From contig NZ_JAVTWB010000049.1 in assembly GCF_032229525.1 (NCBI RefSeq), positions 2,315 to 66,314 on the forward strand: 64,000 nucleotides of DNA. The letters are read 5' to 3'. The position numbers were made by a program, and so were the translations under genes. This document shows positions 24,150 through 48,294 of the stretch, piece by piece (position 1 is the stretch's first letter; each line of letters opens with the position of its first letter). Under the pieces are notes generated by a model. It saw nothing but the letters and a program-made list of their open reading frames with translations, had not been told where the DNA came from and did no database searches. Source of the DNA: Accumulibacter sp. GTDB taxonomy: Bacteria; Pseudomonadota; Gammaproteobacteria; Burkholderiales; Rhodocyclaceae.

Positions 24150-24858
24150 CTCGTGGACGGTCGGTGACGTGTCTGACGGCGGATCACAAAGCAACTCGTC
24201 TGTGGCCTGCGCGTCAAGACGGTATTCACGGTTACAGATATCGTCCTTGATCACGACTTCGCCGTGTTCCGGGAGAGCCGCGTAAACTTCGCAGCGACCG
24301 AGCGAGCGCGGTATCAAACGCACCTTTCCCCAGTCTTTCGGGCAGTGATAGGCGACCGCTCGGGTGGCGAAGAGACGGACCGTCTCCTGGCCAAAAAGGC
24401 GCAGCAGCAGTTCGTTGGGGGGGCAGTGACAGCAGTTCAGCAGGTTTCACTGTCGCGGCGAGCCCTTCGATACGTGTCCAGCCGCCCGCGTCGCGTTGTT
24501 CGGCGGTGGGCAGGCGCTGCAGAAAGAGGCCGGCGGCACCGTCCGCCGAAGTGGCGAGAAACAGGCGTGCTGGCAACTGCTCCGATTGCCCGAGGTAGTG
24601 CTCGAAGATTTCGGCGATGCGGTCGCCGGTGAGTGGCACGATGTTCTGGTAAGGCTCGTGCATTGACGGCATGGCGAGCGCCAGTTGTAGTTGGCCTTCA
24701 CCGAGCAGGTCCGCAGCGGAGCCCGCGGCAACGGCCGCGCTGCACCTGCCCATGCCGCGGATCTGCGGCTCGTTGCAGTCGATGACCAGCAGCGAAGCTA
24801 CCGCGCAACTGGGTGGGCGGGCGTCCGAGCTGCTTCAGGGTTGCTGGCGAGCAAGAGC
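24150..24858 (-). pseudogene. hslO: Hsp33 chaperone remnant: N-terminus missing, several frameshifts
   Basis: Stitched frames give ASN/LKQLGR..TQLRGS/SLLVIDCNEPQIRGM..EPYQNIVPL..IFEHYLGQSEQLPARLFL..AGLFLQRLP, then a +1 shift in the G7 run at 24417-24423, then NELLLRLFGQETVRLF..YHCPKDWGKV..DDICNREYR. No stop at the expected end. Confidence 0.85.
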
Positions 24859-25060: not shown

Positions 25061-25322
25061 TCGCCGCAGTCACTTGCTGGTAGAATTCTGCTGTCCGCTC
25101 AATGATGAATAGATTGCTCGTCAATACGGCATCCAGCTTGTAACCATTAATGATGGGTATCCGGTGGATTCGTTGGTGGTCGCCGCTGGTCACGACGGGA
25201 TCTCGAAATGGCGCTCACCATGCCGCAGCGAGTAACCCTTATTGGCCGACCTGGAATGCCTGTTCGATCGCCATGCTGGGGCCGACGTCGGCTGTACCGA
25301 ACTCCGCCTGCAAGAGGAAACA

Positions 25323-26381
25323 ATGCATAACTACCCCACGATTACCGGTCGCAAGATCCGCATGGCGCTTGTTGGCTGCGGACGCATCGCGGCTAATCAC
25401 TTTAGCGCCATGCAGCAGCACGGCGAGCACATCGAAATCGTCGATGTTTGCGACGTTGACCGCAAGGCGCTTGACAAAGCCGTCCAATGTACCGGCGCCA
25501 GAGGGCATGCGAGCCTGACCGATATGCTCAAAACGACCACGGCGGATGTGGTCGTCCTGTCGACGCCGAGTGGTTTGCACTCGGAGGAGACTATCGAGAT
25601 CGCACAATCAGGCCGTCATGTGATGACCGAGAAGCCGATGGCAACCCGCTGGCAGGATGGTCTGCGCATGGTCAAGGCTTGCGACGATATCGGCGTGCGC
25701 CTGTTCGTAGTCAAGCAGAACCGGCGCAACGCCACTCTGCAGCTCTTGAAGCGTGCGGTTGAGCAGAAGCGCTTCGGCCGCATCTACATGGTCAATATCA
25801 ACGTCTTCTGGACCCGCCCGCAGGAGTACTATGACAGTGCCAAGTGGCGTGGGACCTGGGAGTTCGATGGTGGCGCCTTCATGAACCAGGCCAGTCATTA
25901 TGTCGATCTGCTGGACTGGCTGATCGGCCCCATCGAAAGCCTGCAGGCCTATACCTCCACTTTGGAGCGCAACATCGAGGTCGAGGATACCGGGGTGCTC
26001 AGCGTTCGCTGGCGTTCCGGTGCGCTGGGTTCGATGAACGTCACGATGCTGACCTACCCAAGGAATCTGGAAGGTAGCGTCACGATTCTAGGTGAAAAGG
26101 GTTCCGTGCGGGTTGGCGGTGTGGCAGTCAACGAGATCCAGCACTGGGAGTTCGCCGAGAAGCGGCCGGAAGACGAGCAGATCGCTTCCGCCAACTACCA
26201 AACCACGTCGGTTTACGGTTTCGGTCATCCGCTCTACTACGATAATGTAATCAAAGTCATGCGTGGCGAGGCCGAGCCTGAAACCGATGGTCGCGAAGGG
26301 CTGAAGTCGCTGGAAGTGCTGATTGCCGCCTATCTGGCTGCGCGTGACGGCAAGCGGGTCGCCTTGCCGCTGGATTACTGA
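25323..26381 (+). CDS. wbpB: UDP-GlcNAcA 3-dehydrogenase (Gfo/Idh/MocA; WbpB/WlbA)
   Basis: [40 protein letters not shown] and YGFGH. It lies upstream of wbpD- and wbpE-like genes. Confidence 0.88.
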
Positions 26382-26382
26382 C

Positions 26383-26958
26383 GTGGCAATTACCATCCAC
26401 TCATCCGCGATCGTGGACGAGGGTGCTGTCATCGGCGACGGTAGCCGAGTCTGGCATTTTGCCCACATCTGTGCCGGTGCGCGCATCGGCCAGGATTGCT
26501 CCTTCGGCCAGAATGTGTTCGTCGGCAATGATGTCACGATCGGTAACAACGCCAGGGTTCAGAACAACGTTTCCATCTACGATGCGGTCCATCTTGAGGA
26601 CGATGTCTTCTGCGGGCCGAGCATGGTCTTTACCAATGTGTATAACCCGCGGTCTGCGGTTACCCGCAAGAATGAATACCGGGTTACGACGGTGAAAAGA
26701 GGGGCGACGCTGGGAGCCAATTCCACCATCGTCTGTGGTGTAACCGTGGGCGAGTTTGCCTTTGTCGCTGCTGGCGCCGTAATCAACCGCGATGTCAAGC
26801 CCTATGCCTTGATGGCGGGCGTGCCGGCACGGCAGATCGGCTGGATGAACGAGCATGGCGACCGACTCGACCTTCCGCTCGAGGGTGATGCCTTGCTCCA
26901 ATGCCCGATCACCGGCAAGACCTACAAGCTGACGGGGACGACATTGGCGGTTGAATGA
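26383..26958 (+). CDS. wbpD: UDP-3-amino-GlcNAcA N-acetyltransferase (hexapeptide repeat; WbpD/WlbB)
   Basis: [40 protein letters not shown] and [12 protein letters not shown] start 1 nt after the wbpB stop. Confidence 0.9.
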
Positions 26959-28025
26959 GGGTCGCGGTGATCGGCGGCGGAATCAACGGTGTGATGACCG
27001 CCTGGGCCTTTGCCCGGCGGGGCGATAGCGTCGATCTCTACGAAAAAGGCCAACTGATGTCCGCCACCAGCAGCAGCTCCAGCAAAATGCTGCACGGTGG
27101 ATTGCGATACCTCGAACACGGTCATCTGGGTTTGGTTCGCGAAGCGCTGCAGGAGCGCTCCTGGTGGGTCCGGCAGGCACCACAATTTGCCAGCCCATTG
27201 CAGTTGCTCATCCCAATCTATCGGCAAGGCGGGCGGGCGAAGTGGTTGGTTGGAGCAGGCATCCGGTTGTACGACCTGCTGGCACTCGGATCCGGGTTCC
27301 CACGTGGCCGTTGGTACAGCGCTACCGAGGTGGTCGACCGCTTCCCTGCGCTGCGACGGGAGCAACTGCTGGGCGCCTATGGCTACTGGGATGCCCAGAT
27401 GGACGACTACCAACTGGGTCTGTGGGCTGCTGAAAAAGCAAGGCAGGCAGGCGCCAGACTGCACGAGCAGACTCCCGTGCTGAGGCTCGATGCGACGACA
27501 GGAGAGGTCAGTTTTGGCGGCTCCAGTGCCAGCTACGACCGTGTCGTCAATGTTGCCGGCCCTTGGGCGGAAAAGCTCCTTGCCGACTCAGGCGTGACCA
27601 GCGCCTACCGCCTTGACCTGATCCGCGGTAGCCATATCGTCATACCGGGCAAACGTGAGCAAGGTTGTGTTCTCCAGGTGCCCGGCGAGAAGCGCATCCT
27701 GTTTGTTCTCCCCCTTGGGGAACGTACCCTGCTCGGCACCACGGAAGTCAGCCAGAGTGACCCCGACCACTGTGCGCCCACCGAGGCCGAAGTCGGCTAC
27801 CTGATCGACAATTACAACCGTTGTTTTTCTGAACCCATAGCGCAGCAGGATATACTTGCACGCTTTGCCGGTATCCGCCCGATTGTTGCGAGCAAAACCG
27901 ATTATTCCGCCGCTAGTCGGGAATCGGTGATTGAACGTCAGGGCCGGCTGCTCAACGTCTTTGGCGGCAAATGGACCACTGCGAGGGCACTTGCTGCCGC
28001 CGTGCTGACCAAATCGCAGCATTGA
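26955..28025 (+). CDS. Short GlpD/DAO-family FAD-dependent oxidoreductase
   Basis: [43 protein letters not shown] and GGKWTT. At 356 aa it lacks the GlpD C-terminal cap. ATGA overlap with wbpD. Confidence 0.8.
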
Positions 28026-28033
28026 AAGAAAAA

Positions 28034-29128
28034 GTGAAAATTCAATTCATCGATCTGCAGGCCCAGTATCAGGCGCTCAAGACTTCAATCAACGCACGCA
28101 TCCAGAAAGTGCTCGACCACGGCCAGTACATCATGGGCCCCGAAGTGCTTGAACTCGAAGGCAAGCTCGTTGAATACACCGGGGCGAAGCAATGCATCAC
28201 TGTCGCCTCCGGTACCGAGGCGCTTCTCATTGCCCTGATGGCACTCGATATCAAGCCGGGTGATGAGATCATCACTACCCCGTTCACCTTCGTCGCCACG
28301 GCCGAAGTCATCGCCTTGCTGGGCGCCACCCCGGTCTTTGTCGACATCGAAGCGGATACCTGCAACATCGACGTCAAGAAGATCGAGGCTGCGATCAGCC
28401 CGCGGACTCGCGTAATCATGCCGGTCAGCCTCTATGGGCAAGCGGCGGATATGAACGAAATAAATGCCATCGCGGCCAGGCACGGGCTGACGGTCATCGA
28501 AGATGCAGCGCAGAGCTTTGGCGCCGAATATCAGGGCAAGAAGAGTTGTAATCTGTCCACCATTGGTTGCACCAGCTTCTTCCCGAGCAAGCCCCTTGGC
28601 TGCTATGGCGACGGAGGGGCCATCTTTACAAGCGACGATCAACTCGCCAAAGCGATGCGGGAAATTCGCGTACATGGTCAGGAAAAACGTTACGTTCATA
28701 CGCGGATTGGCGTCGGCGGTCGCATGGATACCCTGCAATGCGCCGTCGTTCTCGCGAAGATGGAACACTTCGAGTGGGAAGTCGAACAGCGCTTGCTGCG
28801 TGGCGAGCACTACCTCGGCCTGCTAGAGGGGCTTTCCTCTGTCCAGCAGCCTGTGATTCGACCAGATAGAACCTGCGTTTGGGGTCAGTTTACCGTTCAG
28901 GTTGAGAATCGGGAGTCTGTGCTTGATCGCTTCACGGTGAAAGGGGTGCCGACGGCAGTTCACTACCCGGTCCCGCTTCATCTTCAACCTGCCTATCAGG
29001 GGATTTGTCGGACCTCCGGCACTCTGAAGACGGCTGAACTTGTCTCCTCCAGGGTGTTCAGCCTTCCGATGCATCCCTACCTTGAGCACGCTGAACAGCA
29101 AATGATCATTGGGTGTTTTGCCGATTGA
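28034..29128 (+). CDS. wbpE: DegT/DnrJ aminotransferase (WbpE/WlbC)
   Basis: FIDLQAQY, SGTEAL, IEDAAQSFGA, SFFPSKPLGCYGDGG, GRMDTLQ and VHYP.PLH. GTG 28034 chosen; TTG 28022 is an alternative start. Confidence 0.9.
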   Translation: MKIQFIDLQAQYQALKTSINARIQKVLDHGQYIMGPEVLELEGKLVEYTGAKQCITVASGTEALLIALMALDIKPGDEIITTPFTFVATAEVIALLGATPVFVDIEADTCNIDVKKIEAAISPRTRVIMPVSLYGQAADMNEINAIAARHGLTVIEDAAQSFGAEYQGKKSCNLSTIGCTSFFPSKPLGCYGDGGAIFTSDDQLAKAMREIRVHGQEKRYVHTRIGVGGRMDTLQCAVVLAKMEHFEWEVEQRLLRGEHYLGLLEGLSSVQQPVIRPDRTCVWGQFTVQVENRESVLDRFTVKGVPTAVHYPVPLHLQPAYQGICRTSGTLKTAELVSSRVFSLPMHPYLEHAEQQMIIGCFAD

Positions 29129-29140
29129 AGAGGGGGGAGC

Positions 29141-30136
29141 ATGTACAAGAATAATTCCGTCGTGGTGGTCGTGCCGGCGTATGACGAAGAAACCCAGATT
29201 GCCCGCGTAATCGAGACCATGCCCGACATCGTCGACATGATTGTTATCGTGAATGATCGCAGTCGCGACCAGACCTCTGAAGTCATTCGGCAGCACCCCC
29301 AGTATGGCGCAGGGCGGGTCACATTGCTCGAGCACGAGGTCAATCAGGGTGTCGGAGGGGCCATCGCGACCGGCTACATGTGGTCGCGAGACCACGACTA
29401 TGACGTGGCTGTCGTCATGGCTGGCGATGGGCAGATGGATCCCGATGATTTGCCCGCCATTCTCGACCCGGTCGTCGATGGTCAGGCGGATTACACCAAG
29501 GGAAACCGTCTGGTGACAGGCGAAGCCTTCAAGAAAATTCCAAAGGTTCGTTTTTTTGGCAACTCGGCGCTTTCCCTGCTGACCAAAATTGCCTCCGGTT
29601 ACTGGCATGTGGCTGATTCTCAGACAGGTTACACCGCCATCAACCGCTCTGCGCTGCGGGCCATCGACTGGGACAACATGTACAAGCGCTATGGTCAGCC
29701 GAACGATCTTCTGGTGAAGCTGAACGTCGCCGAGATGCGCGTTATCGATGTACCGATCGAGCCCGTGTACAACGTTGGAGAGAAATCCGGCATCAACGTG
29801 CGCAAGGCTATCTTCACGATTGGCTCCCTGCTGATTCGTCTGTTTTTCTGGCGTCTCAAGGAAAAATACATCATTCGCAATTTCCACCCGCTGGTATTTT
29901 TCTACGCAATGAGTTTTTTTGGTGTTGGCCTGAGTGCGGCACTATTCATTCGTCTGATCGCTTTGTGGGTCGGCCAGGGGCATATCCCCGAAATTACATT
30001 TCTGAGCTGGTTGTTTTCCTTCTCGCTGGGGTTCAACTCGCTTTTCTTTGCAATGTGGTTTGACTATGAAGAGAACAAGCACCTCAATCCCCCATTGAAA
30101 CATCGGGAGATCAAGCGCAAGCCAAGGCCTGGATGA
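29141..30136 (+). CDS. GT2 glycosyltransferase of polyprenol-phosphate (DPM/GtrB/ArnC-like) type with C-terminal TM helices
   Basis: VVVPAYDEE, VNDRSRD, NQGVGGA, MAGDGQMDP, YTKGNR and DSQTGY, followed by 2-3 hydrophobic C-terminal segments. Confidence 0.82.
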   Translation: MYKNNSVVVVVPAYDEETQIARVIETMPDIVDMIVIVNDRSRDQTSEVIRQHPQYGAGRVTLLEHEVNQGVGGAIATGYMWSRDHDYDVAVVMAGDGQMDPDDLPAILDPVVDGQADYTKGNRLVTGEAFKKIPKVRFFGNSALSLLTKIASGYWHVADSQTGYTAINRSALRAIDWDNMYKRYGQPNDLLVKLNVAEMRVIDVPIEPVYNVGEKSGINVRKAIFTIGSLLIRLFFWRLKEKYIIRNFHPLVFFYAMSFFGVGLSAALFIRLIALWVGQGHIPEITFLSWLFSFSLGFNSLFFAMWFDYEENKHLNPPLKHREIKRKPRPG

Positions 30137-31455
30137 TGGTATCGCTGTTCGAAACGATAAGAGACAGCCTAAGCAAGCACAAACTGACGAGAGACATTGC
30201 ATGGTCCATGGGCAGCTTCTTCGTCCTCGCGATTAGTGGCATTGTCATCAACGTTGCTGTCACCGCATTGCGGGATGCGGCGGCGCTGGGCGTCTTCAAT
30301 CTTGCGTATGCAGTCTACATTGTCATTTCGCAGCTGGCGATCTGGGGCATCCATTATTCCGTCTTGAGACATGCCGCGTTTTTCAAGGAGAACCCGGTAG
30401 AGCGCGGGACCATGCTTTTTACTGCCGCCGCTATGGCCCTTGTTTCGGGGGTGCTCGCAGCCGCCTTGACTGTCTTGGCAGAACCACTGTTTGCGGCGAT
30501 TTTTGAGAGTTCGCAGACCGCTGCTGCGGTTCGCTATTCGGCGCTCGGCCTGTTGCTCTTCCCCCTCAACAAGGTGCTCCTCGCTTATCTCAATGGCTTG
30601 CAAGAGATGAGGGTATTTTCGATCTTGCAAGGCTTCCGCTATCTGATGGTGATGCTGACGGTCACGGCAATTGCCGCGTCCTCCTTGCCCATCGAATTGG
30701 CGACTTTGGCTTTTTTTGTCGCCGAAGTTGGAACGGCCTTGGGCGCCGTCGTCTGGTTCATCAAGTGCCGGCCCACGGAGTCCATGACCTTTTCCGCGGT
30801 TTGGGTGCGAAAGCATTTTGCATTTGGCACAAAAGGCCTGGCAGGGGGAATGTTCGCGGAAGTCAATTCACGAATCGACGTCCTCTTGATCGGCTTCTTT
30901 CTGAATGATCGCGCAACGGGGATCTACAGTTTTGCCGCGATGCTGGTGGATGGTCTATACCAGGTCCTGGCGATGATTCGAATCAACTTCAATCCAGTCT
31001 TGGTTGGTGCGGTGCGCGACGGTAACTGGGAACAGGCCCGACGCCTGCGGATTCAATCGAGAAGGTTTGTCCAGCCGGTAGTCTTGGTGTTGTCCATGCT
31101 CCTCGTCATCGCCTACTACGTCCTTGCCGCCTGGATGGTTCCCGGAAAGGGGCTTCTTGAAGGCTTGCCATCGCTCCTGATTCTCTTGGCGGGTTTGAAC
31201 CTGATTTCAGTATTGGTTCCCTTTGATAACTTGATGGTGGTCTCCGGTCACCCGGGATATCAGGCCGCACAGCAAATGACTGCAGTGGGAGCCAATATTA
31301 TTATGGCAGCCGTACTGCTGCCACTGATCGGTATCGAGGGCGCTGCCTTGGGAACCGCCCTTAGCTATCTCTGCGGCATTTTAATGTTGGTAATTTTCTC
31401 CAGTCGACTGTTGGGTTGGCGATTGCTCAGTAACACGGTCCCAGTGGGGCGGTAA
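30133..31455 (+). CDS. Wzx/MATE-like flippase (first of two)
   Basis: Multi-pass hydrophobic protein of 440 aa with LGVFNLAY, RIDVLLIGFFL..ATGIYSFA and GIEGAALGT. Confidence 0.82.
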   Translation: MMVSLFETIRDSLSKHKLTRDIAWSMGSFFVLAISGIVINVAVTALRDAAALGVFNLAYAVYIVISQLAIWGIHYSVLRHAAFFKENPVERGTMLFTAAAMALVSGVLAAALTVLAEPLFAAIFESSQTAAAVRYSALGLLLFPLNKVLLAYLNGLQEMRVFSILQGFRYLMVMLTVTAIAASSLPIELATLAFFVAEVGTALGAVVWFIKCRPTESMTFSAVWVRKHFAFGTKGLAGGMFAEVNSRIDVLLIGFFLNDRATGIYSFAAMLVDGLYQVLAMIRINFNPVLVGAVRDGNWEQARRLRIQSRRFVQPVVLVLSMLLVIAYYVLAAWMVPGKGLLEGLPSLLILLAGLNLISVLVPFDNLMVVSGHPGYQAAQQMTAVGANIIMAAVLLPLIGIEGAALGTALSYLCGILMLVIFSSRLLGWRLLSNTVPVGR

Positions 31456-31469
31456 CCAGGTAAAAATCT

Positions 31470-33506
31470 ATGTGTGGAATTTTCGGGCTCGGCATCAGGG
31501 AAAACGCCGCCCTGTCCAGAGATCGCTTCGAAGGGCTGTTAAAGAGACTCTACATCCTCTCTGAAAGCCGCGGCAAGGAGTCCGCCGGGCTGCATCTTTA
31601 CCTTCCAGCTGCAGGGCAGGCATGGACCATCAAAGGCGCCAAGCCGGGAACTGAATTGCTGGAGTCGGCGGCGTACAAAGCAACGCTTTCTGCCACCCTT
31701 GATCTGGCGTATGCCCCTGGGTCCCCGGTACCACGTCAGCCGATCATTGCCATTGCCCACTCACGGCTGGTGACTAACGGTCGTGCCGAGTTGACAGAGA
31801 ATAACCAGCCGGTCCGTTGGGGCGATGTCACGATGATCCATAACGGCATCATCGTTAACGTCGACAAACTTTGGGCTCAACTTCCCAATTTGGTTCGTCA
31901 CGCTGAAGTCGATACCGAGGTCCTGGCGGCCATGGTCGCCAGCGCTATGGGGAATAATTTCGACCCTGTTCAGGCGACAGCCGAAGCGTACTCCGTGATC
32001 GAGGGCGCGGCCTCCGTCGCGTGGGTCCATGGCCAAGCAAGCACCTTGACCATCGCAACCAACACCGGTGACTTGTATTGCGCCAACCTTTCCGAAGGCA
32101 ATGGGCTCGTTTTTGCGTCGGAGCGCTTCATTCTCGAGAATGCCGTTGGCAACCAAGACATCGCCAGCCAGACCATCCCGGTTGACGCAGGAACTGGTCT
32201 TTGCCTCGAGATGACTGGTGAGAGTGCGGCAAAGCGGTTTCGACTTGCCGACCACCGCGACGTCCCGCCAAAAGGAATTTACTGGCGGCGCGATGAAAAG
32301 ACCAGGCAATCAGATGTCACCGGAGATATCCCAAAAGTATTTACCGTCGTGGCTCGTGAAGCTGATGTGTCTTTGCTGCGCTACAGCGAAGAGGCCATGA
32401 AACAAATCCGTCGTTGTACCTGCTGCGTCTTGCCGGAAACCTTCCCGTTCATTGCGTTTGACCAGCAGGGCCTGTGCAACTATTGCAGAGGCTACAAGAA
32501 AAAATACAAAGGGATTTCTCCAGAAAAAGCCAAGGCTGATTTTATCCAGTCGGTACAAAAGTATCGCAGCGAGAACGGTTTGCCGGATGTTCTCGTACCT
32601 TTCAGTGGTGGACGCGACAGCTGTTACGGCTTGCATCTAATAAAGCGGGAATTCGGGCTTAACCCGATTACTTTCACCTACGACTGGGGAATGGTGACTG
32701 ATCTGGCCCGCCGCAACATCGCTCGTCTCTGTGGCAAGCTGGGCGTTCAGAACATACTGGTGTCCGCGGACATCAAGACCAAGCGCGAAAATATCCGCAA
32801 GAACGTCGCTGCCTGGTTGAGAAAACCTGATCTCGGTATGGTGCCGCTATTCATGGCGGGCGATAAGCACTTCTTCAAGATCGTCAACGATCTGAAGCGC
32901 CAGACGGGTATTCGGCTCGACCTTTGGTCCGCCAACCCGCTCGAAAACACTGATTTCAAAACCGGTTTCTGCGGCGTGCCGCCGGATTTCGACAAAAGCC
33001 GTGTCGACTATCTCTCGATGAGTCGCAAGCTCCGTCTGGCTATCTATTATGCTTCGCGCTTTGCAACCAATCCGGGATACGTCAATTCCTCATTGCTGGA
33101 TACAGGGAAGGCCTTCCTCTCATATTACATTGAGCCACGACGTGATTTTTTCTTCATGTTCAGCCATATGGTTTGGAATGAAGATGAAGTCAACAAAACG
33201 ATCATCGGCGACTATGACTTCGAACTTGCGCCTGACTCCACTAGTAGTTGGCGAATCGGAGACGGAACGGCGCCATTCTACAATTACATTTACATGACAG
33301 CCCGAGGTTTTTCCGAGTTCGACACCTTTCGCAGCAACCAGATTCGCGAAGGCCACATAACGAGAGAACAGGCAATGAAAGCTATTGTGGTCGAAAATAG
33401 ACCCAGAGTCGAGAGCTTGAGATGGTACCTTGATGTCGTTGGGCTAGATTTCAACGACACGGTGCGGCGGATCAATCAATTAGATCACCTTGGCCTTCAT
33501 GGTTGA
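31470..33506 (+). CDS. Class-II (Ntn) glutamine amidotransferase fused to a WbuX/WbpG-like N-acetyl-sugar amidotransferase
   Basis: The N-terminus has MCG, HSRLVTNG, HNGIIVN and DTEV, with no SIS domains. The C-terminus has CTCC..CNYC, the PP-loop PFSGGRDS, YDWG and WRIGDG..PFYNY. Confidence 0.82.
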   Translation: MCGIFGLGIRENAALSRDRFEGLLKRLYILSESRGKESAGLHLYLPAAGQAWTIKGAKPGTELLESAAYKATLSATLDLAYAPGSPVPRQPIIAIAHSRLVTNGRAELTENNQPVRWGDVTMIHNGIIVNVDKLWAQLPNLVRHAEVDTEVLAAMVASAMGNNFDPVQATAEAYSVIEGAASVAWVHGQASTLTIATNTGDLYCANLSEGNGLVFASERFILENAVGNQDIASQTIPVDAGTGLCLEMTGESAAKRFRLADHRDVPPKGIYWRRDEKTRQSDVTGDIPKVFTVVAREADVSLLRYSEEAMKQIRRCTCCVLPETFPFIAFDQQGLCNYCRGYKKKYKGISPEKAKADFIQSVQKYRSENGLPDVLVPFSGGRDSCYGLHLIKREFGLNPITFTYDWGMVTDLARRNIARLCGKLGVQNILVSADIKTKRENIRKNVAAWLRKPDLGMVPLFMAGDKHFFKIVNDLKRQTGIRLDLWSANPLENTDFKTGFCGVPPDFDKSRVDYLSMSRKLRLAIYYASRFATNPGYVNSSLLDTGKAFLSYYIEPRRDFFFMFSHMVWNEDEVNKTIIGDYDFELAPDSTSSWRIGDGTAPFYNYIYMTARGFSEFDTFRSNQIREGHITREQAMKAIVVENRPRVESLRWYLDVVGLDFNDTVRRINQLDHLGLHG

Positions 33507-33555: not shown

Positions 33556-36093
33556 ATGATTGAGTTTTCAATCAAGGCCTGGTTGGGCTTCTCCTTGCTT
33601 GTAATCCTTGCCAGCGGCGCGGGCTTGGCATTTGCGTGCTTTATCTCCTGGACAGACACCGCTCGACAGGCGAGAATGAACTTGGCTTTCGGCCTCGCGC
33701 TAGGACCATTCCTCGCGGGTTTGGCGATAATATTGGCATTGTATGTTTTTCCGCGGGACTCCCACGCCACTCATCTTTGGGTCACGGCGCTCATTCTCTT
33801 TATACCGTGCGCACTCGGCCTCACTAAATGGTCGTCGCGGCCCCAACAAATAATTGATCCACGGTCTCCATCTCTGGGATTCTATCTCCTTTGCGCACTG
33901 CTGATTCTGTGGATATCGGCGCTGCTGGTTAACTCTGTTTTCATACCCCTAATTGCGAACGATGCCCTCGAGTATGCGACGGTTGGGCGAGAGTTGTTCC
34001 ATGTCCGCACACTCGACGCCTACCCGGTTCTGAATCCGGACACAAATCTCTCCGGGTTTTACGGGCCCTGGACCCATCCCCCGCTTTACGTCTCGCTGAT
34101 CTACCTGATGTCTATTATTCAAAGGCACGCTGATGCACCCGGCTTGATGAGACTGATCGCGCCGTGGTTTCTCATCACCGCCACTTTCGGCGTCGTGAGT
34201 TTGGGAATACTTCGTTCGAAAACCTTTGGCCTTCTCTCCGGAGTTTTGTTCTTATCAACGCCCTTGCTTTTCCTCGGGGCAGGTGCAGGCGCGATCGACG
34301 CGCTAGCGGTTAGCGGAGTCACCCTAATTATTTTGATCTTGCTGGGCGCCAGAAACGATACAGCGAAATATTCTATCAGCTTGGGTTTGGTTCTCGGCGT
34401 CTCCCTGTGGACCCATTCCCAGGCATTACTTTTCGTTCCGTTGGTTTTCGCGATGCTGATTATCCGCCGCGGATTTGCAGATTGGCTTATGATTGTCAAG
34501 GAAGCGGTGATCGTGTCGATTTGCGCTTTAGTGGTTGGCGGCGCTCCCTATTTTAAGAACTGGACTATTTATGGCTCCGCGGTCAGTGACAATCCTCCTG
34601 TATTTGCCCTGCGAGAATTGGATTGGTCTGGATATTTCTCCTATGCGCGCGGACTGGATAATTGGGCAGCAATCATCCAATATGGTGTTTTGAAGGGTTG
34701 GTTTGTTCCGACCTCGTTTGGTTTCGCCTTCTGGCTTTGGACGCTGGGTGCTTTTCTCTTCTGGCGACAGTTCAGGCGAAATGAAAAGGTCGGCAAAACC
34801 GGTTTAAGGCAGAGTTTGTTGGATCAAGAACAGCAGCTTTTGTGGCTGTCTGGATCCTTTGTAGTTGTTTATCTATTAGGTGTTCTGTGCTCAGTCGGGT
34901 TGGGCGTAGACATCATGATTCGTAATGGCCGATATATGCTGGTGATGGTGCCGGCGCTCGTCTTCCTCGCCGCTTATGCCGTTGAGTTGTCCTGCCAGCG
35001 CGCGACCAATTTGTTAAGCAGAACCACCACGCCCGGGTTGTTAAGAGATGCCATCCTCGGATTGGCGATAGGATGCAGTGCTATTATTCTTCTGAACTAT
35101 TTTTTGGTCGGGCTATATGCTGAGTGGCGCCAAGTCCCATCACAACCTAAGCCAGATATATTCGCCGAAGATGCTGCAGAAGGTAACCAATCGAAGGCGC
35201 CGCGTTTCGACTTCATTCTAGATTATTGGCCGTCGATTCGCCTAGCGAGACAGCTTGACGACGTCGTTCCGGCCGACTCTCTTGTGCTCAGCATGCGCCC
35301 GGCAGATATGTACTACACGAAACGGCGATTCGTCAGCTATCTTGATCCTCGGCTGATAGGTGTGTATCGCGAAAAAACTGCGCGAGCGGTAGCGCAAAAA
35401 CTTCAAGAGCTTGGAATACATTTCATTCAGTTGACAGATTACAGCCTGCCGCCGTTCTACAACTCGGCTTTGCAGTCGGTATTGGCCGATCCGGAGTTGA
35501 GCCGTCTTGAGTCCTCGGTAGGAATGTCGCAGCTATATTCCCTGCATTCAAGCGGGTTAAAAAAAAGCACAGCGACCGAGTTGGCCCCGCCGGGTTTCCC
35601 GTGGGCACGAAGCCATCTGTTTCCTGCTTTTGTGCCTAAAAGCATTGTCGAGTTGATCGGTTTTCAACCGACGCCATTCAAGTCCTCAGAGTCGGTGACC
35701 ACTTCTCTTTTAAATCACCAGGATCAAAGCGTTTTGCTGGCAACGGGCTTTGCGGGTGGTATCGGTTGGGGTGCGCTGAAGCAGACGTTTATCGGTATTG
35801 AGAACGCGGAGTACCTGATAAACCTAGGTCTGCATGGGAAAGGGTTCGTGAGGCTCTGGATCGCGCAGTTTGACAGCACAGGAGCACCGGTGCTTTATGA
35901 CACCATCGACAAAGGCAAGCCTTTACGTATCGGCGAAATAGCCCTTACGGAAAGCCATCCCGGACAGGATTTCGCGCGCCGTTTCCGGCCTCACCCCGAT
36001 GGAAAATTTTTGCGGATCGGCGTCGAGCATTTCGGCCGATCCAGTGTTTTGATTGAGAAGGCGTCGATCACTAAACTCGAGCCTGTGAACTGA
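33556..36093 (+). CDS. Large multi-pass membrane protein, GT-C (ArnT/PMT_2)-like, with a C-terminal soluble domain
   Basis: About 13 hydrophobic segments, an acidic early-loop motif NDALEY, HPPLY, LGVSLWTHS and RYMLVMVP, then a ~300-aa hydrophilic tail. The family call is an inference from the motifs. Confidence 0.6.
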   Translation: MIEFSIKAWLGFSLLVILASGAGLAFACFISWTDTARQARMNLAFGLALGPFLAGLAIILALYVFPRDSHATHLWVTALILFIPCALGLTKWSSRPQQIIDPRSPSLGFYLLCALLILWISALLVNSVFIPLIANDALEYATVGRELFHVRTLDAYPVLNPDTNLSGFYGPWTHPPLYVSLIYLMSIIQRHADAPGLMRLIAPWFLITATFGVVSLGILRSKTFGLLSGVLFLSTPLLFLGAGAGAIDALAVSGVTLIILILLGARNDTAKYSISLGLVLGVSLWTHSQALLFVPLVFAMLIIRRGFADWLMIVKEAVIVSICALVVGGAPYFKNWTIYGSAVSDNPPVFALRELDWSGYFSYARGLDNWAAIIQYGVLKGWFVPTSFGFAFWLWTLGAFLFWRQFRRNEKVGKTGLRQSLLDQEQQLLWLSGSFVVVYLLGVLCSVGLGVDIMIRNGRYMLVMVPALVFLAAYAVELSCQRATNLLSRTTTPGLLRDAILGLAIGCSAIILLNYFLVGLYAEWRQVPSQPKPDIFAEDAAEGNQSKAPRFDFILDYWPSIRLARQLDDVVPADSLVLSMRPADMYYTKRRFVSYLDPRLIGVYREKTARAVAQKLQELGIHFIQLTDYSLPPFYNSALQSVLADPELSRLESSVGMSQLYSLHSSGLKKSTATELAPPGFPWARSHLFPAFVPKSIVELIGFQPTPFKSSESVTTSLLNHQDQSVLLATGFAGGIGWGALKQTFIGIENAEYLINLGLHGKGFVRLWIAQFDSTGAPVLYDTIDKGKPLRIGEIALTESHPGQDFARRFRPHPDGKFLRIGVEHFGRSSVLIEKASITKLEPVN

Positions 36094-36242: not shown

Positions 36243-37622
36243 ATGATGATAAGTTGGTTCGACCGTTTGGCAGCACGTGGTGGTTTGCTACGCTCCGTCC
36301 TGATTCTTGCTGGAGGTGCCGCGGGAGCGCAGCTTGTAATGGCGGCGGCGATGCCTGTGCTCTCCCGCTTGTACTCTCCCGCCGACTTCGGTCAATTGGC
36401 AGTATTTTCTGGACTTGTATTGACGATTTCGGTGGCGGCATGCCTGCGCTGGGATATCGCAATTGCTCTTCCTGAAGCGGACGCGGATGCCTTCGGGCTC
36501 TTGGTCTTGAGTGTTGCCAGTTGTTTGGTCATCTCCCTGCTGGGATTGCTGGCCGTGACGTCGGCTACCGCGACCTTCGTGGACTGGCTGGATCAGCCAG
36601 AGGCGGCAACTTGGCTATGGCTGGTACCACCCGCTGTCTTGGCGGTAGCGACTGGCAGCGCCTTACAGAACTGGTTTATACGGGCTCAAAATTTCGGTTT
36701 AATCTCTAAAGCGAGGTTGAGTCAAGCCGGCACCAGTGGTTCACTACAGATCGCCTTTGGATTGTCGGGCATCGGTGTGATCGGGCTGTTGATGGGGTAT
36801 GTTGCTGCAGCCATCGTAGTGGTTGGATTTCTAGGCTTTCAATTATTTAAACAAAGCCACGATTTGCAATTGGCTCTGAACACGGCAAACCTGCGAAGGC
36901 TTGCTAGCACCTACAGTCGCTTCCCGGCATTTTCTACTTGGGAAGCCCTGTCTAACGTTGCCGCCATCCACGTACCCGTTATTCTCATCGCGGGGAAGGT
37001 TGGCAATGATATTGCAGGTCAACTAATGCTGGCGATGTACGTAATTCAGGCGCCGATGGGATTAATTGGGGGGGCGATTTCTCAAGTGTATCTGTCGGAG
37101 GCCCCGTCGAGGTTACGTGTCGGCCGACTGGATCAGTTCACATTAGAGGTTTTAGGGAAACTTTGTAAGGTAGGAGTTGGCCCCCTGGTTGCGATTGGGG
37201 TTTTGTCACCAAGTGTTTTTTGGATCGTTTTCGGAAGCGAATGGGAAAAAGCGGGCCTTCTCATCGCTTGGATGACGCCTTGGTTTGTCCTCCAGTTCCT
37301 CGCATCACCGGTATCAATGGCTTTGCACGTCACTGGCAATCAGCGTGCTGCCATGAGCTTCCAGTTTTTCGCGTTATGCCTGCGTGTTTTTTCTGTACTC
37401 TGGGCTGCCGAGGTTTGGCCTGGTCTCGTAGGGGAAGCCTATGCCATCTCGGGCTTTTTTGTGTACAGTAACTACCTGTTGATCGTCGCTCACTCCCTGA
37501 GAATAAGGCCTGGGGCGTTGGCTGGCGTTTTGGCTAAAAACCTGTTGTGGTCGCTGCCGTGGATTATTTGCGGCGCGATGCTGGCTTGGACTATACATAA
37601 CTACAGTGGATTAGCGTCGTGA
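36243..37622 (+). CDS. wzx: O-antigen flippase Wzx (second of two)
   Basis: GAQLV....PVLSRLYSPADFG, LRWDIAI, ISQVY and WFVLQFLASP; multi-pass hydrophobic. Confidence 0.85.
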   Translation: MMISWFDRLAARGGLLRSVLILAGGAAGAQLVMAAAMPVLSRLYSPADFGQLAVFSGLVLTISVAACLRWDIAIALPEADADAFGLLVLSVASCLVISLLGLLAVTSATATFVDWLDQPEAATWLWLVPPAVLAVATGSALQNWFIRAQNFGLISKARLSQAGTSGSLQIAFGLSGIGVIGLLMGYVAAAIVVVGFLGFQLFKQSHDLQLALNTANLRRLASTYSRFPAFSTWEALSNVAAIHVPVILIAGKVGNDIAGQLMLAMYVIQAPMGLIGGAISQVYLSEAPSRLRVGRLDQFTLEVLGKLCKVGVGPLVAIGVLSPSVFWIVFGSEWEKAGLLIAWMTPWFVLQFLASPVSMALHVTGNQRAAMSFQFFALCLRVFSVLWAAEVWPGLVGEAYAISGFFVYSNYLLIVAHSLRIRPGALAGVLAKNLLWSLPWIICGAMLAWTIHNYSGLAS

Positions 37623-38890
37623 TGATCGACCTTGGATCCGTTTTCAGGCGTCAATCCGAGCGATCTCGGTGGGCCACAGCGTTATTATCACCAGATAACA
37701 GTTTGTTGGTTTTCGGTTTCTTGTTGCTGATGGCCTACAGCATGGTGCCGTTTCTTGCCTGGGCTGCTGCGGGTGCAAGCGACGAGTATTTGCTTTTGGC
37801 GAGCCTTACGTGTTTGGCGCTTCTCGCCATGTGGCTCGGTGGCAACTGCTCCATCTTCGACCATCGCGTTGGCGGCGCTTCAGAATTGGTGGAAGTGGAC
37901 GGGAAGTATGTCATCGCTTTTATTTGTCTTCTCTTTTTATTTTTCGGTTTGTACGTTGTTTTAACAGCACCGACAGTTCCGCTATTAAGCGCTTTGCAAG
38001 GGGTTGACGCGTACTCGCTAAGTGAGGAAAGAGGTGCCTTCTTGAAGGGGAGGCAGGGCGTTGAGAGCGCTTTGCTTTATGTCTCGACTATCCTGACAAG
38101 CACCCTCGTTCCCTACGCTTTGCTGCATGCGTTTGCCTTTGGGTACCGGATTCGTTATATTACTCTGGGCCTGTTTATAATCTACTGCCTTAGTTTTATG
38201 CAGAAGGCGCTTTTTCTCAATGCGCTGATGCCAATTATTGTATTGATTGCCATGAAAGGCTATCTCAGCCGGCGGCTGGTTTTCTTTGTTGTTTCCGGCA
38301 CATTTATCGCACTGCTCGGATTGGTTGCGTTTTCATATGATGGCAACAAGTCCGAAGCGCTTGTTGCGGGAAGCTATTTTTCTGGGTCTTACCTTCCTGT
38401 TGGGAGTTTGGACTATCTTGTGTGGCGTATTTTCGCTGTTCCGATATTTACGGCCGCGGACACCCTTGCCGTTCACCGGGAGACGTTCAGTTCCGAGCAT
38501 CTCCTTGGCGCCACCAGTTCCTTCTTTGCCTTCGTTTTTGGGTTTGACAGGATTAACATAGAACGCTATGTTGCCGATTATCAATTTGGTGGGTCTAGTC
38601 AGATTGCGAACTCCAACGCCGTGTTTTTTATCGACGGTTTTGTTAACTTTGGTTGGCTCGGCGTTTTTCTGTATGGCCTGGTTGCTGGGCAGATTTTCCG
38701 ATTGTTTCGGTTCTCGAGCGACATTGCGTTCAAAGCTTTGTGGCCGATTTTTGCCTTTCAGCTATTTTCGGGGTCATTGATCGGGACAGTACTAAGTAAT
38801 GGTTGGGGAGGGTTGGTGCTTTGCGCCCTGTTTTTCAAGGTATCGGAACACAATACTGATCAATCGTTGGGCCGACACTTAAATGAATAG
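37619..38890 (+). CDS. wzy: Putative O-antigen polymerase Wzy
   Basis: 423-aa multi-pass protein with Wzy-type features (QKAL, R-containing periplasmic loop, FIDGFVNFGWLGV). It sits between wzx and a GT. Confidence 0.65.
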   Translation: MMIDLGSVFRRQSERSRWATALLSPDNSLLVFGFLLLMAYSMVPFLAWAAAGASDEYLLLASLTCLALLAMWLGGNCSIFDHRVGGASELVEVDGKYVIAFICLLFLFFGLYVVLTAPTVPLLSALQGVDAYSLSEERGAFLKGRQGVESALLYVSTILTSTLVPYALLHAFAFGYRIRYITLGLFIIYCLSFMQKALFLNALMPIIVLIAMKGYLSRRLVFFVVSGTFIALLGLVAFSYDGNKSEALVAGSYFSGSYLPVGSLDYLVWRIFAVPIFTAADTLAVHRETFSSEHLLGATSSFFAFVFGFDRINIERYVADYQFGGSSQIANSNAVFFIDGFVNFGWLGVFLYGLVAGQIFRLFRFSSDIAFKALWPIFAFQLFSGSLIGTVLSNGWGGLVLCALFFKVSEHNTDQSLGRHLNE

Positions 38891-39809
38891 CCGTCTTGGT
38901 GGTAATACACAATGTGGTGGCGCTCCTCTTATTTCGGTGGTGGTGGCCGCGAAGAACGAAGAACATCATCTGCGTCAGGCGCTTTGTAGTATTTTGGCTC
39001 AGAATGACGTTAACCTTGAGCTCGTTTTCGTCGATGACGGATCCAATGACCGCACGTTAGATATTGCTTGCGAAATAGGTCGGGGAGATCGTCGCTTGTC
39101 TGTCTACAGTAATCAGGGTTCGGGCAAGTGCAGCGGCTTCAATTTCGGAGTAAGCAAGGCCAGAGGTGCCTACGTGTGCATTTTTTCCGGGGACGATGTG
39201 ATGCCCCAGGGCAGTTTGCGGGGTCGCCTTGATGCCATTCAGGCTAGTGGTCAGGAAACCGCGGTTATCGGACTCTCGAAGCTCGTGACGATGTCCGATG
39301 TCAGCAAATTTGATGGCTTCCTTATTCCCCGGGCCAAGGGAGTTGGTGCTCTCAGTGGCGTGTCGCCATTGATGAATCGGAAAGCGCTGGAGCTGGTTTT
39401 TCCGGTGCCGGAGTTTTTGCCGAACGAGGATACATGGATGGAGTTGGCTGTCTTGCATCTTGAAGACGTCCTAGTGATTCACTCCAATGTCGTGGCGTGC
39501 CGATGGCGTGTTCATTCTGGCAATAGTATCAATATGATGTTGCCATTTGCAGAATACAACTCAAAGGTGACCGCCAGATTTCGTGCGTTGCCCGTATTCT
39601 ACGAGAAGTTCAAAGATAGTATCAGTCAAGATCAGTCGACCATATTGCGAGCAAAAATGCGTTGCGAGGAATCCCGAGTTCAGGGAGATATGGTTGGCGT
39701 CATGTTGTCTGGCGCGGGTTTCGTTGATCGACTGCGTGCTCTTTCGATTACCAACGGATTCCTGTTTTGGATTCGACGATCTTGCTACGGTCTGTTTAGT
39801 GGCTGGTAG
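38883..39809 (+). CDS. GT2 glycosyltransferase
   Basis: ISVVVAAKNEE, FVDDGSND, NFGV..ARG..VCIFSGDD and ED. Confidence 0.88.
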   Translation: MNSRLGGNTQCGGAPLISVVVAAKNEEHHLRQALCSILAQNDVNLELVFVDDGSNDRTLDIACEIGRGDRRLSVYSNQGSGKCSGFNFGVSKARGAYVCIFSGDDVMPQGSLRGRLDAIQASGQETAVIGLSKLVTMSDVSKFDGFLIPRAKGVGALSGVSPLMNRKALELVFPVPEFLPNEDTWMELAVLHLEDVLVIHSNVVACRWRVHSGNSINMMLPFAEYNSKVTARFRALPVFYEKFKDSISQDQSTILRAKMRCEESRVQGDMVGVMLSGAGFVDRLRALSITNGFLFWIRRSCYGLFSGW

Positions 39810-39831
39810 GTTTGGCTGTTCGGGGAATTTT

Positions 39832-40971
39832 ATGAGTGAACGATATAGGATATGCGTCAATTGCATTATGGACACCACGGATCCCGGCATCTCTTTTGAT
39901 GAGGAGGGTGTTTGCGACTACTGCAGCAACTTCAAGAATGAAATCGAACCGAACTGGTACCCAAACACCAAAGGCCAGACGGAACTTGCTTCTCTTGCTG
40001 AAAAAATCCAGGTAGAGGGAAAGGGCAAGAGCTTTGATTGCATTATCGGGTTGAGCGGCGGTCTGGATAGTTCCTATACCGCGCTGATCGCGAAGGATAG
40101 GATGGGCTTGCGGCCGCTGCTGTTCCACGTGGATGCCGGGTGGAACACCGATCAGGCGGTGGGAAACATAGAGAAACTGGTCGATGGCCTTGGACTTGAT
40201 CTCTATACCGAGGTGATCAACTGGGAAGAAATGAAGGATCTCCAACTTGCTTTCCTGCGTGCGCAGATCGCGGACCAGGATTTGCCACAGGATGGCGCCT
40301 TCTTCTCGGCCCTCTACAAGTTTGCCAGGAAGCACCGCATCAAGTACGTGTTGACCGGCTCAAATGTGTCAACGGAATGCTGCCGTGAACCGGAAGCATG
40401 GGGTGGCTATCCAGGCATTGACAAAACGCTGTTCAAGGATATTCACGCTCGCTTTGGCAAACGTCAGTTGAAGACCTTTCCGCTGGTGGACATCTTTACG
40501 TACAAGGTGCTCTATCAGAAGGTTCTCGGAATGGAGGTCGTCAAACCTTTGAATCTTGTACCGTATATCAAGGCTGAGGCTGAGCGGGAGCTCGAACGCC
40601 GCTTCGGCTGGCAGAAGTTCCAGCACAAACACCACGAGTCGCGCTTCACGCGTTTCTATGAAGACTACTGGATGCCGCGCAAGTTCGGTTACCACAAGCG
40701 CCGAGCTCACTTCTCCAGTCTGATCCTCACCGGGCAGATGACGCGCGAGGCCGCATTGGCGCGTCTCGCACGGCCCGAGATGGGCGAAGAGTTTCTCAGG
40801 CAGGAGTTCGAGTACGTAGCCCACAAGCTCGGCTTGACGGTGGCTGAACTTCAGGAGATCTTTGATGGCGAGAACAAGACCTACCGGGACTACCGGAACA
40901 AGCGCTGGGCTATCGGCGTTGGTACCGACGTAATGCGTCGGCTCGGCCAGGAAAGAAGGTTGTTTCGATGA
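39832..40971 (+). CDS. wbuX: N-acetyl-sugar amidotransferase (WbuX/WbpG-like)
   Basis: CVNC..CDYC, IGLSGGLDSS, HVDAGWN, KHHES and KRRAHFSSLI. Confidence 0.88.
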   Translation: MSERYRICVNCIMDTTDPGISFDEEGVCDYCSNFKNEIEPNWYPNTKGQTELASLAEKIQVEGKGKSFDCIIGLSGGLDSSYTALIAKDRMGLRPLLFHVDAGWNTDQAVGNIEKLVDGLGLDLYTEVINWEEMKDLQLAFLRAQIADQDLPQDGAFFSALYKFARKHRIKYVLTGSNVSTECCREPEAWGGYPGIDKTLFKDIHARFGKRQLKTFPLVDIFTYKVLYQKVLGMEVVKPLNLVPYIKAEAERELERRFGWQKFQHKHHESRFTRFYEDYWMPRKFGYHKRRAHFSSLILTGQMTREAALARLARPEMGEEFLRQEFEYVAHKLGLTVAELQEIFDGENKTYRDYRNKRWAIGVGTDVMRRLGQERRLFR

Positions 40972-41582
40972 TTCACATCGTGGACTATGGTTTGGGGAAC
41001 ATCCAGGCGTTTGTCACCATGTACAAGCGCCTGGGCGTGGCGACGGTGCGTGCTCGATGCGAGGATGACCTGCGCGATGCGAACAAGCTGATCCTCCCGG
41101 GCGTCGGCGCTTTTGACCATGCCATGGCCTTGCTTGATGCTTCTGGAATGCGCCAAGCGCTTGAACAGCTGGTGAAACGGGACCGCGTGCCCGTATTGGG
41201 CATTTGTGTTGGTATGCAGATCCTTGCCGATTCCAGCGAAGAGGGTGTTGGGGCGGGCCTCGGTTGGGTCAAGGGGCAGGTGCGCAGCTTTGCCGGCAAT
41301 CCGGCTTCCGCCGCTTTGCCCATGCCGCACATGGGGTGGAACGATGTTCTTCCCGCTGCCGGGTGCCGCTTGTTTAAAACGCTGGAAGATGAGGCCCGCT
41401 TCTATTTCCTGCATTCGTACTACTTGGAATGTGCAGACGTGACAAGTGCGGTGGCACGCGCGGACTACGGCTTCAGGTTTGCTTGCGCAGTGCAGAATGA
41501 TAATGTCTTTGGTGTACAGTTCCACCCCGAAAAGAGCCATCACTGGGGTGCGGCGCTCTTGAAGAACTTCGCGGAGCTCTGA
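40968..41582 (+). CDS. HisH-like class-I glutaminase (WbuY-like)
   Basis: DYGLGN, PGVGAF, LGICVGMQ, PHMGWN, YFLHSY and QFHPEKS. The context is a polysaccharide cluster, not the his operon. Confidence 0.9.
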   Translation: MIHIVDYGLGNIQAFVTMYKRLGVATVRARCEDDLRDANKLILPGVGAFDHAMALLDASGMRQALEQLVKRDRVPVLGICVGMQILADSSEEGVGAGLGWVKGQVRSFAGNPASAALPMPHMGWNDVLPAAGCRLFKTLEDEARFYFLHSYYLECADVTSAVARADYGFRFACAVQNDNVFGVQFHPEKSHHWGAALLKNFAEL

Positions 41583-41583
41583 G

Positions 41584-42381: not shown

Positions 42382-42391
42382 GCGAGACCTA

Positions 42392-44529: not shown

Positions 44530-44530
44530 T

Positions 44531-45661: not shown

Positions 45662-45668
45662 GGCTGAC

Positions 45669-47887: not shown

Positions 47888-48294
47888 CAGACGAGAGGCG
47901 CGCGCTGTGCCCGTGTGCACCGAGAATCCCATTACCTTCAGTGCACCAAGGGGCATAATGTAGCGCCGTGCCGGCACGGTTACCCGGGTGGGCAAAGAGA
48001 ACATGCCGCATCGCCGCCGCTCCGCGCGTCGCGCACCAGCGCATCACGACGAGGTCTAGAAAAACACCCGAAACGCGGCAATATGCAAATGAGCTGCGTT
48101 GTAAAGCAGATGGTCACGGGGTGTCCGGAGTCGGGTTTTCGATTTCTTTGCAGCCTCTGACTCCGTTGATCGCTGGTGGCCAAGACCGTGCGCATGACGT
48201 TAACCCGAGGACCTGAATACGTTCAGGGCCACGAACTGATTGGTACCTTACAGGCGATGGATACGGTATTGGCCGATGGCGGCTTAGCGGAATC

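Follow-up and report, generated by a model that had tools for sequence, protein, structure and literature searches.

A class-II glutaminase fused to a NASAT-like synthetase in a surface-glycan locus of Accumulibacter

Introduction

Can a synthetase related to the N-acetyl sugar amidotransferases (NASATs) draw its ammonia from a glutaminase carried in its own polypeptide chain? The question is raised by a gene at positions 31470-33506 of the forward strand in a 64,000-nucleotide stretch of an Accumulibacter sp. genome (contig NZ_JAVTWB010000049.1; the whole stretch is called the window below), which joins an N-terminal class-II glutaminase to a C-terminal synthetase. The known NASATs (TIGR03573: WbuX of E. 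coli O145, WbpG of P. aeruginosa O5, PseA/PtmG of Campylobacter, AglX of Methanococcus maripaludis and LpNASAT, PDB 8WEX) work instead with HisH and a HisF2/WbuZ/AglZ partner. Genetics and gene adjacency point to HisH/HisF as the ammonia source of WbuX, WbpG and AglX; to our knowledge, no reconstitution of the family's chemistry has been achieved, and how it obtains ammonia has been deduced from gene adjacency. Our proposal is that the fused protein is probably an amidotransferase that needs glutamine and ATP but no partner enzyme and that acts on 2,3-diacetamido-2,3-dideoxy-D-glucuronic acid (GlcNAc3NAcA), and we favour an acetamidino product.

O-antigens, flagellins and archaeal glycans change in charge and antigenicity when acetamidino sugars are built into them. 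A single-chain enzyme would be simpler for a first reconstitution, with one protein to handle rather than three, and it would show the same synthetase scaffold to have recruited glutaminases of two unrelated types (class-I HisH/HisF and class-II Ntn, for N-terminal nucleophile). The window offers a test case in which fused and three-part systems coexist in one O-antigen locus, and where close homologues of the characterised WlbA, WlbB and WbpE beside the fusion name a concrete candidate substrate.

Domain organisation of the fused protein

The gene is one unbroken open reading frame (ORF) of 678 codons (protein P0001). Conservation was read from A1, an alignment of 28 diverse homologues ranging from Proteobacteria to archaea, on which an AlphaFold2 model was also built. 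The following features were delimited:

31470-33506, + strand: fused amidotransferase gene (continuous ORF; full-length homologues 39-71% identical at 80 loci, one per species; AlphaFold2 model)
31470-32249, + strand: class-II (Ntn) glutaminase domain, residues 1 to about 260 (Pfam, alignment to 1xff, Foldseek)
32250-32369, + strand: interdomain linker, residues about 261-300, of variable length and sequence (lowest pLDDT; most gap-rich part of A1)
32370-33506, + strand: NASAT-like PP-loop synthetase domain, residues about 301-678 (TIGR03573, A1 profile against 8WEX, Foldseek)
32415-32486, + strand: tetracysteine (zinc-ribbon) motif, C316, C319, C336 and C339 (NASAT motif match; conservation in A1)
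32604-32621, + strand: PP-loop SGGRDS, S379-S384, the ATP pyrophosphatase signature (invariant in A1)

By its Cys nucleophile, its GlmS-equivalent residues and its scores above the Pfam gathering cut-offs, the N-terminal domain is a class-II (Ntn) glutaminase. GATase_6 and GATase_7 match residues 93-220 with 50.6 and 37.4 bits (cut-offs 27 and 25, respectively), and residues 1-199 match the glutaminase part of the NCBIfam GlmS model. The nucleophile directly follows the initiator Met (MCGIFG), and every relative locus with an intact N-terminus starts with (M/L/V)CG[IV][FL]G. In a HMMER alignment to the glutaminase domain of E. coli GlmS (1xff), R99 corresponds to R73, N125/G126 to N98/G99 and D148 to D123, and the whole catalytic set (Cys2, R99, N125/G126, D148) is invariant in A1. 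Foldseek matched this domain to GlmS and GFAT-1 at E ~3e-14, and the family profile matched GlmS over it at E 1e-15.

The C-terminal domain carries the motifs by which NASATs were defined in the LpNASAT structure paper, namely a PP-loop and a CxxC-Xn-[GN]xCxxC tetracysteine motif, the latter forming the zinc site of 8WEX (PMC10607449). The tetracysteine reads C316-T-C-C319 ... G334-L-C336-N-Y-C339, with C316 invariant in A1 and C319, C336 and C339 at least 90% conserved; all six residues of the PP-loop (S379-GGRDS384) are invariant and correspond to 122-SGGKDS-127 of LpNASAT. The domain matches the WbuX model TIGR03573 at E 1.4e-34 and the fusion sequence matches 8WEX at E 2.8e-15, while the A1 profile aligns its positions 330-640 with chain residues 79-385 of 8WEX (E 1.3e-19) and so covers the whole synthetase domain. 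In the Foldseek search, 8WEX ranked first for this domain (template-modelling score 0.59-0.60, target-normalised; 389-396 aligned columns). By homology, the domain would bind zinc and use ATP. The fusion shares with the canonical NASATs the tetracysteine zinc motif, the SGGxDS PP-loop, the fold and a location in surface-glycan clusters, but its score falls short of the curated hidden Markov model cut-off and the usual partners are missing; by sequence it is best described as a divergent NASAT relative.

The AlphaFold2 model is a compact two-domain structure (pLDDT 89.7, pTM 0.90), in which pLDDT falls below 50 only at residues 266-269, in the linker, and stays lowered to about residue 300. This dip maps to 32.25-32.37 kb. 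When the whole model was compared with the PDB, LpNASAT (8WEX) came first, followed by GlmS/GFAT-1 and then by AsnB, beta-lactam synthetase and PurF, and no solved structure in the PDB spanned the whole fused architecture (query-normalised score at most 0.36). No hydrophobic segment was found in the protein.

An earlier note on this DNA had placed an N-terminal glutaminase and a Cys-motif/PP-loop amidotransferase in one ORF, joined near 32.3-32.4 kb and devoid of the SIS domains of GlmS, and the domain searches bear this out on each count: the Cys2, HSR, HNG and DTE motifs that it listed are found as MCGIFG, H97-S-R99, H124-N125-G126 and D148-T-E, the junction coincides with the dip in model confidence, and no SIS match was obtained at E <= 0.1.

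Distribution and genuineness of the fusion

The fused family is large and widespread and is not a one-off. A homologue search with the fusion protein returned at least 8000 matches, of which the best 120 are full-length and 60-71% identical. When one genome per species was scanned, 123 relatives were confirmed, and the best 80 loci were retained for the counts given here. They span Alpha-, Beta- and Gammaproteobacteria, Legionella, Flavobacteriales, Ignavibacteriota, Acidobacteriota, Nitrospinota, the candidate phyla radiation (WWE3), Bacillota, Bathyarchaeota, Thermoproteota and Woesearchaeota. Both halves are present in 80/80, the C-terminal domain being 46-81% identical and the N-terminal domain 31-60%. 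Among 400 other Pseudomonadota genomes sampled, one carries the fusion and 18 carry a canonical NASAT. The maximum-likelihood tree shows a well-supported clade of proteobacterial type, in which alpha, beta and gamma lineages are intermixed, and a Bacteroidota clade, with archaeal sequences nested within bacterial ones; such a pattern would be expected for horizontally mobile glycan genes. No paper describing the fused architecture was found among open-access papers and bioRxiv preprints, and no NCBIfam model captures it.

Could the gene nevertheless be a plain GlmS or AsnB paralogue, or an artefactual read-through of two genes? We consider this scarcely credible. The names given to its relatives in databases do point to GlmS and AsnB ("glucosamine--fructose-6-phosphate aminotransferase", "glucosamine 6-phosphate synthetase", "asparagine synthetase B", or simply "hypothetical protein"), and the N-terminal domain is 28% identical to the genome's own GlmS, its only detectable paralogue in the host genome. 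However, neither SIS nor Asn_synthase (PF00733) or TIGR01536 matched the fusion at E <= 0.1, and the GlmS equivalogs of NCBIfam score far below their cut-offs (NF001484, 53 vs 381; TIGR01135, 40 vs 418). A true GlmS of 609 amino acids is encoded elsewhere in the genome (C119:44858). A GlmS/AsnB paralogue is thus ruled out by domain content, and the names glmS and asnB are wrong because the SIS and Asn_synthase domains are missing and the genuine GlmS lies elsewhere; misannotation as glmS had been anticipated in the earlier note. Thousands of entries for the fused family bear these names or none, and could be corrected. A read-through is at odds with the same fusion at 80 loci in many phyla and with a model that forms one compact unit at pTM 0.90, and chance is excluded by the E-values together with the 80 full-length relatives.

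The order of the domains, an Ntn glutaminase with Cys1 followed by a PP-loop ATP pyrophosphatase, is also that of AsnB and of the AsnB-like sugar amidotransferases WbpS, WbtH and WbqG, and by analogy with AsnB ammonia would be transferred between the domains. The two halves nonetheless have other closest relatives. GlmS is the best-scoring relative of the glutaminase domain, followed by PurF, and has its catalytic residues (Cys1, R73, N98, G99, D123) in common with it, whereas its SIS isomerase domains have no counterpart in the fusion; the synthetase domain is of NASAT type with a zinc ribbon. Because neither half is AsnB-like, the AsnB-like architecture was, as far as sequence shows, reached by a separate fusion, as the earlier note had suggested.

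Three unusual relatives were met in these surveys. An apparent split form (P0174, locus L088) comes from a contig where fragmented genes abound and probably reflects an artefactual frameshift. P0230 (L087, 6001-7113) is a genuine stand-alone protein of 370 amino acids that belongs to the clade of the C-terminal domain of the fused family (54% identical) and is located upstream of fnlA/B/C-like genes. Its gene has no Ntn glutaminase gene adjoining it and no HisH/HisF pair within 6 kb; the protein may depend on free ammonia or on another partner. Fusion is therefore not obligatory for this clade. In a second genome of the same class (G031:C1:378361-379437 and 383548-384606), a C-domain relative in a 614-amino-acid open frame, 50% identical over residues 310-673, lies 4 kb from a canonical WbuX with HisH/HisF (L100), a pairing that mirrors the coexistence of fused and canonical systems in the window.

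Ammonia supply

In canonical NASATs the glutaminase is a separate class-I HisH working with a HisF-like partner; in the fusion it is covalently attached and of class II. HisH/HisF neighbours were scored by one tblastn method for both kinds of locus. A pair is present within 10 kb at 1/80 fused loci, versus 15/21 canonical NASAT loci from other genomes within 1.5 kb, and at the sole fused locus that has one (L012) the pair flanks a separate canonical WbuX. HisH/HisF adjacency, which is typical of NASATs without strictly defining them, is thus not a feature of the fusion. The invariant Cys1/R/N-G/D set and the scarcity of HisH/HisF at fused loci lead us to infer that the built-in glutaminase replaces the HisH/HisF (WbuY/WbuZ) pair. 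At the level of sequence and gene context, the self-sufficient enzyme foreseen in the earlier note is supported.

The window itself provides an internal contrast, as a canonical WbuX-HisH-HisF2 trio lies 6 kb downstream of the fusion:

39832-40971, + strand: WbuX (TIGR03573, 290.8 vs 203.2)
40968-41582, + strand: HisH (TIGR01855, 219 bits)
41584-42381, + strand: AglZ/HisF2 acetamidino modification protein (NF038364, 364 vs 310)

The trio is followed by fnlA-, wbcJ- and wecB-type genes for L-FucNAc. The mechanically called ORF of this WbuX (39583-40971, + strand) begins with GTG and overlaps the upstream GT2 gene by 227 nucleotides; the family profile begins at its residue 89, and an ATG (MSERYRICVNC...) is found at 39832, which is likely the true start of a protein of 379 amino acids. 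A protein search recovered only close relatives of this WbuX (77-99% identity).

Substrate and product

The nature of the substrate is suggested by the genes grouped with the fusion. They form a single operon in the order wlbA/wbpB, wlbB/wbpD, flavoprotein, wbpE, GT2, MOP flippase, fusion and 845-amino-acid protein, spaced by a 4-nucleotide overlap and by gaps of 12, 14 and 49 nucleotides; the flippase gene overlaps the GT2 stop by the 4 nucleotides and ends 14 nucleotides before the fusion. Its members other than the fusion are:

25242-26381, + strand: wlbA/wbpB-like dehydrogenase (PDB 3q2i, 2e-190)
26323-26958, + strand: wlbB/wbpD-like acetyltransferase (PDB 3mqg, 1.3e-85)
26955-28025, + strand: GlpD/DAO-like flavoprotein, 356 amino acids (Pfam; overlaps wbpD and wbpE)
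27971-29128, + strand: wbpE (WbpE, PDB 3nu7, 2.3e-127)
29141-30136, + strand: GT2 of the polyprenyl-phosphate sugar synthase type with C-terminal transmembrane helices (NCBIfam, transmembrane segment)
30133-31455, + strand: MOP/Wzx-like flippase (Pfam Polysacc_synt and Polysacc_synt_3; nine hydrophobic segments)
33556-36093, + strand: GT-C-like membrane protein, 845 amino acids (hydropathy profile, loop motif)

As wlbA/wbpB, wlbB/wbpD and wbpE are part of the operon, the substrate in the window is most probably 2,3-diacetamido-2,3-dideoxy-glucuronic acid, and it would stay in the gluco configuration because the module contains no 2-epimerase. WbpG and AglX reportedly act on the manno-epimer of this sugar, according to the AglXYZ work. 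We propose the following sequence of events. Once the initiator Met is removed, Cys1 of the Ntn domain would hydrolyse glutamine, and the ammonia released would pass inside the protein to the NASAT-like domain. There the PP-loop would use ATP (to AMP and PPi) to activate an acyl oxygen of the sugar, which ammonia would displace; the N-acetyl group would thereby become an acetamidino group, as with WbpG and AglX. As parts of one conserved module, the GT2, the MOP flippase, the fusion and the GT-C-like transferase would together transfer the modified sugar to an acceptor in the periplasm, for instance the O-antigen or the lipopolysaccharide (LPS) core. Glutaminase activity, ammonia channelling, ATP use, substrate identity and product nature are all predictions in this scheme. 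That the genetically studied NASATs are all tied to acetamidino formation (PMC10607449; SugarBase preprint on PtmG) is in keeping with the product proposed.

The comparison of loci bears on this proposal. The module, with wbpA/B/D/E genes, recurs in Stenotrophomonas, Noviherbaspirillum, Rhizobium, Rhodopseudomonas, Accumulibacter, Rubrivivax, Legionella and others, and wbpB/D/E accompany it throughout the proteobacterial clade. Two loci (L011 and L018) were considered as exceptions to this linkage and rejected, the genes (wbpB) sitting just past the flanks first examined. At L005, a four-gene module stands beside a different O-antigen cluster with no wbpA/B/D within 10 kb, and loci of Flavobacteriales have the GT2, multi-pass membrane proteins and MOP flippases but no wbpA/B/D. 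Because many loci have no nearby wbpA/B/D, an N-acetyl group is the more plausible shared feature of the substrates across these varied contexts.

A different reaction can be imagined, with architecture and ammonia supply unchanged, in which the PP-loop would adenylate the C-6 carboxylate and yield the uronamide GlcNAc3NAcAN, that is, AsnB/WbpS-type chemistry on a NASAT scaffold. Amide and amidine products are isobaric (both -0.984 Da). PP-loop enzymes such as AsnB and NadE do adenylate carboxylates. The substrate-binding half of the C-terminal domain diverges from that of canonical NASATs, wbpA is linked to the module in 13/80 loci, and GlcNAc3NAcAN occurs in the O-antigen of a betaproteobacterium, Bordetella hinzii (PMC12041961). 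We nevertheless regard the uronamide as unlikely: the C-terminal domain is homologous to NASATs and not to Asn_synthase, wbpA/B/D are not nearby at many loci, including those of Flavobacteriales, Ignavibacteria and several archaea, and in Noviherbaspirillum (L004) an AsnB-type amidotransferase is encoded separately, on the same strand 8 kb downstream of the fusion.

Several observations, the Bordetella uronamide among them, weigh against the self-sufficient acetamidino-forming enzyme that we favour. The C-terminal domain reaches 120 bits, in two stretches, against a trusted cut-off of 203.2 for TIGR03573, and its identity to the WbuX of the window (about 34% by BLAST) is confined to the first 124 residues; with a substrate-binding half so divergent, a different reaction is possible. 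The HisH/HisF pair of the window lies 7.5 kb downstream of the fusion, and cross-talk between the two systems is conceivable in the host. No wbpA was found in the window, and the sole UDP-GlcNAc 6-dehydrogenase candidate of the genome is a TviB-like gene at another locus, on contig C30, which may supply UDP-GlcNAcA. As a way to tell amide from amidine, other genomes with the module were checked for such an enzyme, whose absence would speak against a uronamide: dehydrogenases about 35% identical were found in 7/8 other proteobacterial genomes (mostly betaproteobacterial), either linked to the module or distant from it, and one metagenome-assembled genome gave no match. On contig C30 (L086, 1909-10661), the TviB-like gene and a TviC-like 4-epimerase gene follow a PEP-CTERM/XrtA exopolysaccharide regulatory set comprising PrsK, a PEP-CTERM response regulator and PrsT.

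The surrounding module and a possible lipid-linked substrate

A related question is whether the fusion acts on a nucleotide sugar or later. It is possible, if less than probable, that it acts after the GT2, at the cytoplasmic face of the membrane, on a polyprenyl-phosphate-linked sugar, which would be compatible with either product. Such a step would resemble those of ArnD (a deformylase) and NaxD (a deacetylase), by which the N-acyl group of a lipid-linked sugar is remodelled before it is flipped. The GT2 is the steadiest neighbour of the fusion across phyla, archaea included: it is found in 58/80 loci, lies upstream on the same strand within 4 kb in 47/68, and abuts the fusion in a Thermoproteota archaeon. 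By comparison, the nucleotide-sugar genes vary or are absent among loci, and in the window the fused gene sits between the flippase and the GT-C-like gene. Set against this are the lack of any hydrophobic segment in the protein, the weakness of gene order as evidence of reaction order, and the apparently nucleotide-linked substrates of canonical NASATs, judged by the CMP-linked acetamidino nonulosonates detected in Campylobacter (SugarBase preprint).

Unlike the canonical NASAT genes, the fused gene is embedded in a GT2-flippase-GT-C module. In NCBIfam the GT2 comes closest to AglJ, PpgS and dolichyl-phosphate hexose transferase but falls far short of all three cut-offs, and the MOP flippase is present in 55/80 loci. 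The 845-amino-acid protein has about 12-13 transmembrane helices and a soluble C-terminal domain of about 320 residues; it has no Pfam or NCBIfam match, and its homologues adjoin the fusion in 24/80 loci. It carries a loop motif, NDALEYATVGREL ("DALEYA...RE"), which we take to resemble the acidic motif of ArnT/PMT. In Stenotrophomonas this protein is replaced by an unrelated-looking protein of about 800-850 amino acids with a C-terminal DUF7024. At a Flavobacteriales locus (L089, 12031-14008), two ORFs for multi-pass membrane proteins (350 and 296 amino acids) come after the fusion, and the first of them has a TDHDILEYGIQGRIF loop like that of the 845-amino-acid protein; the pair may be a two-gene or frameshifted GT-C-like counterpart.

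The module recalls the Arn (ArnC/ArnD/ArnEF/ArnT) and Francisella FlmF2/NaxD/FlmK pathways, which likewise combine a polyprenyl-phosphate GT2, a flippase and a large GT-C-like protein with a soluble enzyme, clustered with them, for changing the N-acyl group or the charge of the sugar. It differs in that the tailoring enzyme would be an amidotransferase rather than a deformylase or deacetylase, that the flippase is of MOP/Wzx type, and that the 845-amino-acid protein lies outside every Pfam and NCBIfam family. More speculatively, and we hold this doubtful, the fusion could catalyse the committed tailoring reaction of a previously undescribed, Arn-like pathway for surface decoration, with three components and a range from Proteobacteria to archaea. 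A GtrB/ArnC-type GT2 would load an N-acetylated sugar (here GlcNAc3NAcA) on polyprenyl phosphate, the fusion would turn an N-acetyl group of the lipid-linked sugar into a permanently protonated acetamidino group with ammonia from its own glutaminase, the dedicated MOP flippase would export the product, and the GT-C-like protein would attach it to LPS or another envelope glycan, altering surface charge. If the lipid-carrier reading were true, the module would be a new route to change envelope charge.

Other features of the locus

Downstream of the operon, positions 36243-50187 (+ strand) hold a Wzx/Wzy-type O-antigen cluster: wzx, a putative wzy, a GT2, the WbuX-HisH-HisF2 trio, fnlA, a wbcJ-type reductase, a wecB-type 2-epimerase, a WcaI-family GT4, an SDR epimerase and a WbpM-like dehydratase. 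Its gene content predicts an L-FucNAm-containing repeat unit. No initiating WbpL/WecA-type transferase was seen in this cluster among ORFs of at least 200 amino acids.

The flavoprotein at 26955-28025 scores 263 bits against PRK12266 (glycerol-3-phosphate dehydrogenase), below the cut-off and with the C-terminal part of the model missing; among 85 relatives' loci it was found only in Accumulibacter (L010, 81% identity). Just upstream of wbpB, a 173-amino-acid ORF on the opposite strand (24232-24753, - strand) matches only positions 105-208 of the 273 of the Hsp33 profile. This looks like what is left of a truncated hslO and may mark the edge of an inserted glycan island.

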